The position numbers and the translations under genes were made by a program. A stretch of 19,370 bases of DNA, taken from IMG/VR virus record IMGVR_UViG_2513237361_000014, one strand, 5' to 3'. Source of the stretch: a virus (Duplodnaviria > Heunggongvirae > Uroviricota > Caudoviricetes). The notes under the pieces were generated by a model, which saw nothing but the letters and a program-made list of their open reading frames with translations, was not told the origin of the DNA and ran no database searches. Positions 1-3,322 of this stretch are shown piece by piece. Position 1 is the first letter of the stretch. Each line of letters opens with the position of its first letter.

Positions 1-300
1 ATGTCTCAGCCAGCGAAAGTTTTGCTGCTGTATGCCCATCCGGAATCTCAGGACTCGGTGGCAAACCGGGTACTGCTTAAACCGGCCACGCAGCTCAGCA
101 ATGTTACCGTGCACGACCTTTACGCGCACTATCCCGATTTTTTTATTGATATTCCCCGTGAGCAGGCATTACTGCGTGAGCACGAGGTGATTGTTTTTCA
201 GCATCCGCTTTATACCTACAGTTGCCCGGCGTTACTGAAAGAGTGGCTTGACCGGGTGTTAAGCCGTGGGTTTGCCAGCGGGCCCGTCAGCACCAGCTGA
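1..300 (+). pseudogene. kefG: KefG (K+ efflux ancillary protein) 5' fragment; KefG-like sequence ends near 285, then the frame runs 5 more codons to a stop
   Basis: Translation [94 protein letters not shown] matches my recollection of the KefG N-terminus. The tail PVSTS plus stop is unrelated, and only about 95 codons are present where roughly 184 are expected. Confidence 0.6.
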
Positions 301-524
301 TTGGTCAGTTTGCTGCGCTGAAGCAGCCACAGTCGGGAGCCGTAACGGTCATTCTGTACCGCAGGCCAGGTATCCCCCCACCATCCCATCGGGACGTCGG
401 CGTTGTCATCAGGCTCCGCCCGCCGCCAGGTAAACAGGGAAATCACCACGGCGCGGGTCAGCGGATCCAGCGGTGCGCTGGCGCAGGTGCGTTTACCGTT
501 CACCGTCAGCCACAGTTCCATCAT
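216..524 (-). pseudogene. Phage baseplate/tail protein, 3'-disrupted (Mu gp46-like by position); last ~23 codons read antisense through kefG
   Basis: ORF directly follows the two baseplate genes on the same strand with a 4-bp start/stop overlap at 521-524. The first ~80 codons are phage-like; the assignment is by gene order, not recognised sequence. Confidence 0.35.
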
Positions 525-1069
525 GCCTCCATCGCTTTATCAGGTTTGTCGGTGTTACTGCCCTGACCGTTCTCTCTGTGACGATGCCCGTTATAGGCAA
601 GCCGCATCGCTGACATGGTGGTGCCGCCGGAGTCGCACAGGTCTTTCACCTGTCCGGTCACTTCCAGATCCATTTCAAAACGTGCTTCAGGTGCATTGCG
701 AAACGTGATCGTTTTCCCTGCACCGTCCACCACGATCCCCTCCCGGGTCAGCGTCACAGACTGCCCCTGATCGTCATAGACAGCCACCTCACCCGTTTGC
801 AGCCCTTTCAGGCGGTAGCGCCGGTCCGACACCGTAACAACCACCGCATGAGAACGGTCGCCATCCGGAAACAACACCACCGCTTCCGCACCGCTGTTTG
901 CCCTTGCGGTAAAACCGTAGGGTTCAAGATATTCAACCCCGGCTTTGGGTTCACCGGCAATCAGGGACACATCCACGGTCTGACATTTCGTGGCGGCACT
1001 GATGCTTTTCACCACTGCCCGCCCAATCAGGCCGAGAAGTTGTCGCTGCATGGCTTCAATCGTCCTCAT
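521..1069 (-). CDS. Phage baseplate assembly/spike protein V-like (Mu gp45-like)
   Basis: 182-aa ORF whose C-terminal region (CDSGGTTMSAMRLAYNGHRH) resembles the spike-apex region of gpV-type proteins as I recall it. Its start overlaps the upstream gene by one base at 1069. Confidence 0.55.
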   Translation of the reverse strand: MRTIEAMQRQLLGLIGRAVVKSISAATKCQTVDVSLIAGEPKAGVEYLEPYGFTARANSGAEAVVLFPDGDRSHAVVVTVSDRRYRLKGLQTGEVAVYDDQGQSVTLTREGIVVDGAGKTITFRNAPEARFEMDLEVTGQVKDLCDSGGTTMSAMRLAYNGHRHRENGQGSNTDKPDKAMEA

Positions 1070-2091
1070 CAGAACGGGTCCTCCTGTACTCTGGCTTTTT
1101 TCTTTTTCCGCGCGCCGGGGGCTTCGGGTTCAGGCAGATAAGCGTCAGGCGGGCCGACACGGATTTCCGTCAGGGTGCCGTTCTGGTCCTGAGTAAACGT
1201 GACTTCCGAGACAAGCAGTTCGGTATTGTCGAAACCACAGACCGGATCGAAGACAATCACCCGCTGGTTGGGCTGCCACAGCGTACCGTTACCCTGTCGC
1301 CAGCCCTGCACCACATAGGTGGTTTCATCCGTCCGCGCCGCCCGTTTTCGGGCTTCAAAGTCAGCACGCGCAATACAGCCTGCCCCCGTGGCCTGCCCTG
1401 TCTGCCTGATATACATCGGACGGTAACGGGCAATAAATGCGTCCTCTGTGCGGGCCCGCAGCGCGGTGGTGGTGGCCTCACCGAAATCATCGTCGTTTCC
1501 GGCACGCTGCCCCGCCACCTGGTAAACAGAAAACCGCTCCCGGATACTCTTCTCCGTATCGCAGGAAAGGATGTTTTCCCCGAGTACCAGCGCAGTATGT
1601 GCCCGCGTTGAGCCAATACCACCAATCACCAGCCTGCCGTGCGGGTCGTCGTAAGCCAGTGCCTGCTGCTGACCGAGTATTTTGTTGATTACCTCAATCA
1701 CCGTTTCACCGTGATCGGGCTGGACGTCAGGAATAACACCCGACGGCGCACCGCTGTTCACCACCTCAATGCCGAAAGGCGCAGCAAGCGCCTGCGCAAT
1801 CTGCACCAGCGAGCGTCCGTTAAACTGTGTCGGTTCGGCTGCACAGTCAATCAGGTCAGCCGTCAGACTACGTCCGGCAATACCGGTGCTGACCGAACGG
1901 GCATCGTAACGAACGGGAGTCGCCTCCACCCAGCCGGTGCTCACCAGCTCATCACCAATCAGCACTTCCACTTTTGAACCGTTTTTAATGCGCGGCTGAA
2001 GCGTGGTGATACCCTCATCTCCCGGCCATTGGCGAGTGATCTCCACACTGAAATCCCGCGCCAGCCGTTCAATACCGGCACCGATGCGCAC
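1069..2091 (-). CDS. Phage baseplate hub / late-control-D-like protein (Mu gp44-like), probably 5'-truncated
   Basis: 340-aa ORF from a GTG at 2091. The frame stays open upstream to 2142 ([23 protein letters not shown]...) with no start codon before it runs antisense into the tuf start, so the native N-terminus appears to be missing. Confidence 0.5.
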   Translation of the reverse strand: MRIGAGIERLARDFSVEITRQWPGDEGITTLQPRIKNGSKVEVLIGDELVSTGWVEATPVRYDARSVSTGIAGRSLTADLIDCAAEPTQFNGRSLVQIAQALAAPFGIEVVNSGAPSGVIPDVQPDHGETVIEVINKILGQQQALAYDDPHGRLVIGGIGSTRAHTALVLGENILSCDTEKSIRERFSVYQVAGQRAGNDDDFGEATTTALRARTEDAFIARYRPMYIRQTGQATGAGCIARADFEARKRAARTDETTYVVQGWRQGNGTLWQPNQRVIVFDPVCGFDNTELLVSEVTFTQDQNGTLTEIRVGPPDAYLPEPEAPGARKKKKARVQEDPF

Positions 2092-2138
2092 CGATGTCCA
2101 GCCATTCCACTCCCGGCCATTTACCCGTAGCGTGACCC

Positions 2139-3322
2139 GTGTCTAAAGAAAAATTTGAACGTACAAAACCGCACGTTAACGTTGGTACTATCGGCCACGT
2201 TGACCACGGTAAAACTACTCTGACCGCTGCAATCACCACCGTACTGGCTAAAACCTACGGCGGTGCTGCTCGTGCATTCGACCAGATCGATAACGCGCCG
2301 GAAGAAAAAGCTCGTGGTATCACCATCAACACTTCTCACGTTGAATACGACACCCCGACCCGTCACTACGCACACGTAGACTGCCCGGGGCACGCCGACT
2401 ATGTTAAAAACATGATCACTGGTGCTGCTCAGATGGACGGCGCGATCCTGGTTGTTGCTGCGACTGACGGCCCGATGCCGCAGACCCGTGAGCACATCCT
2501 GCTGGGTCGTCAGGTAGGCGTTCCGTACATCATCGTGTTCCTGAACAAATGCGACATGGTTGATGACGAAGAGCTGCTGGAACTGGTTGAAATGGAAGTT
2601 CGTGAACTTCTGTCTCAGTACGACTTCCCGGGCGAGACACTCCGATCGTTCGTGGTTCTGCACTGAAAGCGCTGGAAGGCGACGCAGAGTGGGAAGCGAA
2701 AATCCTGGAACTGGCTGGCTTCCTGGATTCTTACATTCCGGAACCAGAGCGTGCGATTGACAAGCCGTTCCTGCTGCCGATCGAAGACGTATTCTCCATC
2801 TCCGGTCGTGGTACTGTTGTTACCGGTCGTGTGGAACGCGGTATCATCAAAGTTGGCGAAGAAGTTGAAATCGTTGGTATCAAAGAGACTCAGAAGTCTA
2901 CCTGTACTGGCGTTGAAATGTTCCGCAAACTGCTGGACGAAGGCCGTGCTGGTGAGAACGTAGGTGTTCTGCTGCGTGGTATCAAACGTGAAGAAATCGA
3001 ACGTGGTCAGGTACTGGCTAAGCCGGGCACCATCAAGCCGCACACCAAGTTCGAATCTGAAGTGTACATTCTGTCCAAAGATGAAGGCGGCCGTCATACT
3101 CCGTTCTTCAAAGGCTACCGTCCGCAGTTCTACTTCCGTACTACTGACGTGACTGGTACTATCGAACTGCCGGAAGGCGTAGAGATGGTAATGCCGGGCG
3201 ACAACATCAAAATGGTTGTTACCCTGATCCACCCGATCGCGATGGACGACGGTCTGCGTTTCGCAATCCGTGAAGGCGGCCGTACCGTTGGCGCGGGCGT
3301 TGTAGCTAAAGTTCTGAGCTAA
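2139..3322 (+). pseudogene. tufB: Elongation factor Tu, tufB-type (C-terminus ...VAKVLS), with a 1-bp deletion frameshift near 2635-2636
   Basis: GTG start followed by [27 protein letters not shown]. Frame 1 ends at 2666 (...[14 protein letters not shown]); a second frame carries the rest of EF-Tu ([15 protein letters not shown]...GVVAKVLS). The span is 1184 nt, one short of the 1185 nt expected for 394 codons plus a stop. Confidence 0.85.

Follow-up and report, generated by a model that had tools for sequence, protein, structure and literature searches.

Does the junction between a truncated set of phage baseplate genes and the chromosomal gene kefG represent a genuine fusion of a prophage remnant to the Escherichia chromosome? 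The question is raised by a stretch of 19,370 nucleotides (hereafter the window) that derives from AEME01000001.1, the record of Escherichia sp. TW09308, and near the left end of which three overlapping minus-strand genes of phage origin run into kefG in antisense. The fusion is almost certainly an artefact of assembly or deposition rather than a real feature. More specifically, we attribute both the truncation of the gene trio and its apparent fusion to kefG to the joining of short-read contigs without spacers, a reading to which we assign a probability of about 0.92.

The genes themselves are present much as the first-pass annotation had described them, i.e. as three overlapping minus-strand ORFs (216-2136 in all) with ATGA-type overlaps between neighbours at 1069 and at 521-524. 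Its proposed identities were borne out by a profile-HMM search against Pfam. The hub ORF (1069-2136, open for 355 aa; gp44/GpP-like, resembling P2 gpD) matches Gp44-like_2nd (1e-26), GpP-like_1st (5e-22) and GpP_4th (2e-18), the spike ORF (521-1069, complete with 182 aa; gp45/V-like) matches Phage_Mu_Gp45 (7e-24), and ORF 216-524 (102 aa; gp46/W-like) matches GP46 (6e-18), though over only positions 1-56 of the 101 in the profile. The bit scores of 93, 78 and 67 for the hub, 84 for gp45 and 65 for gp46 compare with gathering cut-offs of 27, 24.1 and 28.6, and all of these baseplate domains thus score above the gathering threshold. Both truncations that had been reported are also there. In intact relatives the three proteins are 359, 182 and 141 aa long, and the hub gene of the window is therefore short of its first 4 codons; phage homology stops at 2136, 12 nt before the start codon. 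In the gp46-like gene homology is lost at 284, after codons 1-79 (284-521, minus strand), and 22 codons of antisense kefG follow in frame to a stop at 216-218, which gives a chimeric ORF (216-524, minus strand). A complete module would hold the trio together with gp47 (Baseplate_J) and gp48; here gp44 is short, gp46 is cut, gp47 is absent from the window and gp48 is represented by its C-terminal part only, on a separate, inverted piece.

The phage DNA that carries the trio (piece A, 284-2136, minus strand) matches a prophage of E. coli 2c3 (locus L001, 20001-21853) at 99.3% identity along its 1,853 nt, and locus L024 (8934-10786) at 99.35%. On the strength of this near-identity and of the Pfam matches we assign it to the baseplate module of an e14/SfV-like prophage. 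Such prophages of Escherichia and Shigella combine lambdoid regulation, an HK97-type head, a Mu-like contractile tail module and a Pin invertase. The E. coli 2c3 relative occupies the e14 site, next to an icd fragment with pinE and mcrA, others adjoin smpB, and the window shows both near-identity and tail-module synteny with these icd- or smpB-adjacent prophages, the shared gene order being gp44-gp45-gp46-(gp47/J)-gp48/YmfQ-tail fibre-pin. Wherever else the identical gp45 protein occurs, the trio has its complete lengths and lies within an intact prophage, whereas the window has only two internal fragments that are opposed and separated by tuf.

The families of gp44 (hub, P2 gpD-like), gp45 (spike, P2 gpV-like) and gp46 (P2 gpW-like), their order and their overlaps are shared with phage Mu, but the 99%-identical relatives are of lambdoid and integrase type; they carry a Q antiterminator, a P27-type small terminase and an HK97 protease, and they are not transposable. 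Since these relatives are not transposable and are found at icd or next to smpB, Mu ends are not to be expected, and the argument that a transposing Mu-type phage would have left a phage end at the junction does not apply to integrase-type e14/SfV-like prophages that are 99.3% identical to the trio. The negative conclusion attached to it, which excludes a simple insertion of a prophage into kefG, holds, and inspection of the junction sequences revealed no phage end at 284 or at 2136.

On the far side of the first junction (284/285) the window contains the 5' 284 nt of kefG (1-284, plus strand; 96.1% identical to K-12 kefG, with a Pfam match to Flavodoxin_2), and kefG homology is confined to this stretch. 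A long syntenic contig that reaches leftwards beyond the window (fic-pabA-argD-yhfK-crp-yhfA-prkB-yheU-yheT-yheS-kefG', as seen in locus L006) ends with this stretch. Eight Escherichia or Enterobacter loci align unbroken up to window position 284 and then, unlike the window, proceed to kefG-kefB; the loci recovered in the genome-contig scan for kefG belong to other Escherichia species, none being labelled E. marmotae. The exact 101-aa product of the chimeric ORF is on record in one contig only, AEME01000001.1 itself. The 33-nt string across the junction has no match in the genome, metagenome and viral contig collections, and the junctions of the window are absent from all 5,426 complete E. coli genomes, a collection in which no mislabelled E. 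marmotae was found. In the collections searched the junction is thus missing from every independent assembly, and it was not seen in the complete prophages of relatives, where the trio is intact.

A true junction would imply that a decayed e14/SfV-like fragment was joined to truncated kefG in TW09308 by illegitimate recombination. Prophage remnants joined in this manner exist in enterobacteria, and no repeat was identified on either side of the junction, which is in keeping with such an event. The failure to locate the 3' half of kefG and kefB elsewhere in the TW09308 record likewise counts against a concatenation of contigs. On the other hand, the junction occurs in a single record and shows no att site, IS end or target duplication. 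A chimera formed at a restriction site or by proximity ligation was also considered and found no support: GGGCCC is present at this junction, but inspection of the junction sequences by eye showed no restriction site common to them.

The other end of piece A is more telling. It abuts a tuf piece (2137-3328, plus strand; 98.9% identical to tufA and 98.5% to tufB) that extends from 2 nt ahead of the start codon to 6 nt past the stop, and a comparison of flanks shows that tufA/tufB identity stops at both of its ends. A segment cut exactly to the tufA/tufB repeat is not what any recombination event would yield, which argues against a true junction. The tuf start codon is a GTG at 2139. The first-pass annotation had given the trio a span of 216-2142, and the left part of this span stands, but its right limit falls inside tufA, a gene that it had not mentioned. 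The tuf ORF is split by a 1-nt deletion at ~2636, i.e. the sole tuf copy in the window is frameshifted. We also ruled out a true deletion between kefG and tufA in which the lost DNA was replaced by phage DNA, tuf being trimmed to the tufA/tufB repeat. If the adjacency of kefG', phage and tufA were a true replacement, the interval from kefB through fusA would be lost, and this interval holds rpsL, rpsG and fusA. These are essential genes and, with the tuf of the window frameshifted, viability would also seem to speak against such a replacement.

Beyond tuf lies a second phage piece (piece B, 3325-3970, plus strand), which is 99.2% identical to L024 12242-12887 and 95.5% identical to L001 18545-17900. 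It comprises, both on the plus strand, the C-terminal 116 aa of gp48/YmfQ (3327-3677; Pfam Phage_Mu_Gp48) and the first ~96 codons of a tail fibre (3681-3970). Pieces A and B come from the same prophage type and lie in opposite orientation with tuf between them; the 1,455 nt that separate them in relatives are absent from the window, as is the remaining prophage. Two co-resident prophages as the cause of the ends of A and B were considered as well, but the two prophage types compared, L023 and L024, are 96.5% identical across those positions without a break, and this comparison lent the idea no support.

Piece B ends, at 3970, at the centre of a Pin-type invertase crossover site belonging to the tail-fibre switch; in the E. 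coli 2c3 locus the crossover inverted repeat is at L001 16036-16055 and 17886-17905, beside pinE. This end, together with the opposite orientation of A and B, could suggest that the phage pieces are true Pin-type rearrangements that scrambled the tail region and joined the prophage to the chromosome. We consider this extremely improbable. The partner at 3970 (the bamD terminator) ends at an IS4 site of closed E. marmotae genomes, no obvious similarity to a crossover site was seen there, and neither end of piece A coincides with a crossover site. Moreover, if the sequenced culture held the invertible segment in both orientations, a contig end at this position would be accounted for equally well.

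The pieces further to the right show where such ends tend to fall. The bamD-rluD-yfiH-clpB piece (3969-9400) is 100% identical to CP099351.1 (L010 10772-5341), and closed E. marmotae genomes are 99.5-100% identical over it. In these genomes bamD-clpB lies between an IS4 insertion and an rrn operon (in CP099351.1, IS4 at L010 10776-12201 and 16S/23S/5S at L010 2-5012); 3 nt separate position 3969 from the IS4 insertion point, and the -35 of rrn P1 begins 2 nt beyond the break at 9400. A fragment of a gadA/gadB-type glutamate decarboxylase gene (9401-10513, plus strand; 94% identical to K-12 gadA and gadB) extends to 4 nt past the stop codon, where gadA/gadB identity also gives out. The fimE-fimB-nanC-nanM-nanS island piece (10514-18571; 99.96% identical to closed E. 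marmotae CP099351.1, L021 3144-11201) begins 4 nt beyond the fimS inverted repeat (TGGCCCCAA, L021 3131-3139). It is followed by another abutted piece, a P4-like satellite core fragment (18572-19177; 99.0-99.5% identical to P4-like elements in many genomes), whose 95-aa protein appears in 57,061 collection blocks; the products of two other ORFs of the window are not on record.

For seven of the piece ends an independently defined boundary of repeated or invertible DNA is found within ~6 nt, namely the two tufA/tufB identity limits, the gadA/gadB limit, rrn P1, the IS4 point, the fimS inverted repeat and the Pin-type site, and these ends therefore bear the signature of short-read contig ends. 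For five others (kefG nt 284; L024 8934, 10786 and 12242 in the phage; gad nt ~292) no repeat boundary was identified, and we assume that contigs ended at these sites as well. Seven such ends in 19 kb, all apart from the kefG junction, also weigh against a true junction there, which we regard as highly improbable. Its narrower form, in which the first junction alone is genuine (an internal tail-module fragment joined to kefG', with the contig breaking off at the fragment's other end), is given just as little credence.

Local blastn shows the 19-kb window as a whole to be a mosaic in which at least 8 pieces, unrelated to one another, follow in the order kefG', phage A, tuf, phage B, bamD-clpB, gad', fimE-nanS island and P4-like core, whose K-12 positions are megabases apart. 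At the joins there is no spacer and the ambiguous overlap amounts to just 0-4 nt, and no mobile-element ends were found in the junction sequences inspected; neighbouring segments derive from unrelated loci and have no sequence in common where they meet, as expected of a concatenation artefact. A physical fusion of a prophage remnant to kefG, which the first-pass annotation had implied, is not upheld, since pieces are abutted without spacers at 8 or more places, many of them repeat boundaries, and the kefG junction is among these. The core pieces show 93% identity to K-12 versus 99.5-100% to E. marmotae, which rules out E. coli or Shigella as the source. The TW09308 record (AEME00000000), from a clade V strain, has been assigned to E. 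marmotae (ANI 99.3%). The draft genome dates from 2011 and the record consists of one sequence of 4,809,826 bp, in which the window starts at about 4,731,315; those papers mentioning TW09308 that the analysis covered contain nothing on its assembly.

We propose that short-read contigs of TW09308 were set end to end without N spacers into the pseudo-molecule AEME01000001.1, the joining having probably been done by the depositors or by a pipeline. TW09308 would then carry an ordinary e14/SfV-like prophage, and the trio would be one contig of 1,853 bp out of the central part of its tail module. In the file this contig would be preceded by one that happens to end within kefG and followed by the contig into which the tufA/tufB repeat was collapsed. 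The missing hub start, the cut gp46 and the antisense read-through into kefG would be products of abutment that do not exist in the cell, i.e. with contigs joined without spacers the junction would be without biology. Contig-concatenated pseudo-molecules share with the window the spacer-less abutments, the ends at rrn, IS, tuf, gad, fimS and invertase sites and the collapse of multi-copy genes. A difference is that the order of pieces in the TW09308 record, which is neither reference order nor size order, follows no evident rule.

The same mosaic and repeat-boundary data, and the fact that the record is a single 4.81-Mb sequence, could also be explained by a mis-join made by an assembler, scaffolder or gap-closer (chimeric contigs, zero-N gaps) instead of by deliberate concatenation. 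We find this very unlikely: assembler errors normally pass through a shared repeat, yet the abutting ends have next to nothing in common, and the adjoining pieces come from unrelated loci without any pairing logic. Even if a mis-join were the cause, the fusion would still not be real and the biological conclusion would be the same.

The kefG junction therefore has no biological significance as an artefact of spacer-less joining, and its value is that of a data-quality warning. The joins in AEME01000001.1 yield false fusions and false gene neighbourhoods, and they create false pseudogenes, i.e. kefG', gp46', gp44', gad', tail fibre' and a frameshifted tuf. Scans for odd fusions or rearrangements that include this record, or similar early draft pseudo-molecules, will give artefactual matches.

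The three baseplate genes lie on the minus strand, with ATGA-type overlaps between neighbours at 1069 and 521-524, as read from the sequence and the ORF list. The hub ORF (gp44/GpP-like, 1069-2136) has an open frame of 355 aa, is listed by the ORF tool from GTG 2091, and carries the Pfam domains Gp44-like_2nd, GpP-like_1st and GpP_4th. The gp45/V-like ORF (521-1069, 182 aa) matches Phage_Mu_Gp45, and the gp46-like ORF (216-524, 102 aa) matches GP46 over profile positions 1-56 of 101 only. The corresponding products of intact relatives have 359, 182 and 141 aa, so the hub gene is short by 4 codons; in the gp46-like gene homology stops at codon 79 (position 284) and is followed by 22 codons of antisense kefG, a gene of which the window holds the first 284 nt only. 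The first-pass annotation had described three ORFs with their overlaps, both truncations and the read-through into antisense kefG, and the ORF list, the sequence and the relatives bear this out, as the Pfam families do for its gene assignments. Missing from that account is the tufA start codon (GTG at 2139), which abuts the right-hand boundary of the trio. The trio itself is unremarkable and already known: its genes belong to the Mu gp44/45/46 baseplate families and to an e14/SfV-like prophage.

Every other contig shown with an identical gp45-like protein contains the complete trio, and a full prophage running from head, tail and baseplate to tail fibre and invertase is visible in all of them except one short contig. 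The closest relative occupies the e14 position next to a fragment of icd, together with pinE and mcrA, and other relatives adjoin smpB. These relatives are lambdoid prophages of the integrase type that combine a Mu-like tail with a Q antiterminator, a P27-type small terminase and an HK97 protease, and the expectation of a Mu transposition end at the kefG junction does not apply.

When compared by local blastn with K-12 loci, one E. coli prophage and closed E. marmotae genomes, the 19.4-kb window splits into at least eight pieces. The 5' part of kefG (1-284, 96.1% identical to K-12) is followed by phage piece A (284-2136, 99.3% to the E. coli 2c3 prophage), tuf (2137-3328, 98.9% to tufA and 98.5% to tufB) and phage piece B (3325-3970, 99.2% to the prophage locus L024), which holds the gp48/YmfQ C-terminus and the tail-fibre N-terminus in the opposite orientation to A. 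Then come bamD-rluD-yfiH-clpB (3969-9400, 100% to the closed E. marmotae genome CP099351.1), a glutamate decarboxylase fragment (9401-10513, 94% to K-12 gadA and gadB), fimE-fimB-nanCMS with an island (10514-18571, 99.96% to CP099351.1) and a P4-like core fragment (18572-19177, 99.0-99.5% to many P4-like elements). In K-12 these loci are megabases apart. At the four junctions checked base by base (~284, 2136, 3326 and 3969) the flanking homologies share only 0-4 nt, and no IS ends, att sites or target duplications were found there.

Short-read assemblies break at multi-copy repeats and at invertible segments of mixed orientation, and seven of the piece ends match boundaries that are defined independently of the source record, AEME01000001.1. 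The tuf piece extends 2 nt upstream of the start codon and 6 nt past the stop, and at both limits the flanks of K-12 tufA and tufB cease to match; the gad piece ends at its stop codon plus 4 nt, the limit of gadA/gadB identity. On its clpB side the bamD-clpB piece stops 2 nt short of the -35 hexamer (TTGTCA) of an rrn P1 promoter, and the closed genome continues there with a full rrn operon. Its bamD side breaks off within the terminator loop of bamD, 3 nt from the insertion point of an IS4-family element (1,426 bp) that occupies this loop in nine other E. marmotae contigs, mostly closed chromosomes (L007-L015, ~10776-12201, window side 3969; duplication ~14 nt). This bamD-raiA insertion looks conserved in E. 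marmotae, possibly species-wide. The fim piece, from 10514, starts 4 nt beyond the inverted repeat TGGCCCCAA of fimS, a phase-variable invertible element, and lacks both the fimS switch and fimA, which is consistent with phase-variable fimS orientation breaking the assembly. Piece B ends at the centre (central dinucleotide) of a 20-nt inverted repeat, a Pin-type crossover site, that flanks the tail-fibre invertible segment beside pinE (16036-16055 and 17886-17905 in L001, the 2c3 prophage locus), and this suggests that the culture used for sequencing contained the tail-fibre switch in both orientations. The coincidence of piece ends with independent boundaries is the decisive evidence.

The tuf piece mixes tufA-like and tufB-like sequence, its 5' differences matching tufA and some of its 3' differences matching tufB, and a 1-nt deletion at ~2636 (GACGAC to GAGAC), which would inactivate the gene, cuts it into ORFs of 175 and 163 aa. 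This frameshift most likely reflects an error in the consensus of two collapsed repeat copies rather than a pseudogene. The gad fragment, a contig in which gadA and gadB are collapsed, comprises the C-terminal ~370 codons and abuts the clpB downstream region and fimE; a spurious ORF of 391 aa runs antisense to it at 9328-10503.

The stretch 11000-13700, which takes in fimB and the long spacer between fimB and nanC, has a very low G+C content (0.31-0.40), and the same arrangement occurs in E. coli IHE3034 at ~90% identity. A 197-aa ORF without a Pfam match (17371-17964) lies in the island that separates nanS from a PvuII-type restriction-modification system, and its sequence looks hydrophobic and membrane-like; the exact protein occurs in 107 blocks of the collection, with the same gene context in 6 of the 6 places examined. 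The island also contains degenerate remnants at 16423-16909 and 18175-18571, one a fragment of an HNH/phosphorothioated-DNA restriction endonuclease (95.8% to IHE3034) and the others P4-like ogr/psu remnants. Closed E. marmotae genomes conserve these remnants at 100%, so this decay is real and not an artefact. One gene in the 606-nt P4-like core fragment (from 18572) encodes a PF25738 'Derepression' protein of 95 aa, for which the collection lists 57,061 blocks. The remainder (19178-19370) matches none of the loci in the comparison and is probably one more abutted contig.

Only one contig on record encodes exactly the chimeric gp46' protein (101 aa), namely AEME01000001.1 (GCA_000208565.2), a single sequence of 4,809,826 bp. 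AEME00000000 is Escherichia sp. TW09308, a cryptic clade V strain from Michigan freshwater that is now classed as E. marmotae (ANI 99.3%). To the left, synteny extends in the record for at least 10 kb beyond the window, from fic through yheS to the truncated kefG. A set of 5,426 complete E. coli genomes contains none of the window junctions, and the 33-nt junction string has no match in genome, metagenome or viral collections. We conclude that the record is a series of short-read contigs placed one after another with no spacer between them, and that both junctions of piece A, kefG'-gp46' and gp44'-tufA, are artefacts of the file. As to an origin by recombination, no such process would trim tuf to the tufA/tufB repeat with phage DNA on both sides, and a real replacement between kefG' and tufA would lose kefB through fusA, including rpsL, rpsG and fusA, which are essential. 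Five piece ends have no repeat boundary that we could find, namely kefG nt 284, both ends of piece A (8934 and 10786 in L024), and the left-hand limits of piece B (12242) and of the gad piece. Two prophage types that were compared showed no identity break at the phage-piece ends. The five ends may reflect gaps in coverage, IS insertions specific to the strain or a second related prophage, and a genuine junction at 284 keeps a residual few percent. The kefG-phage fusion is no feature of the organism, and its sole value is as a caution about AEME01000001.1 and similar early pseudo-molecule drafts.
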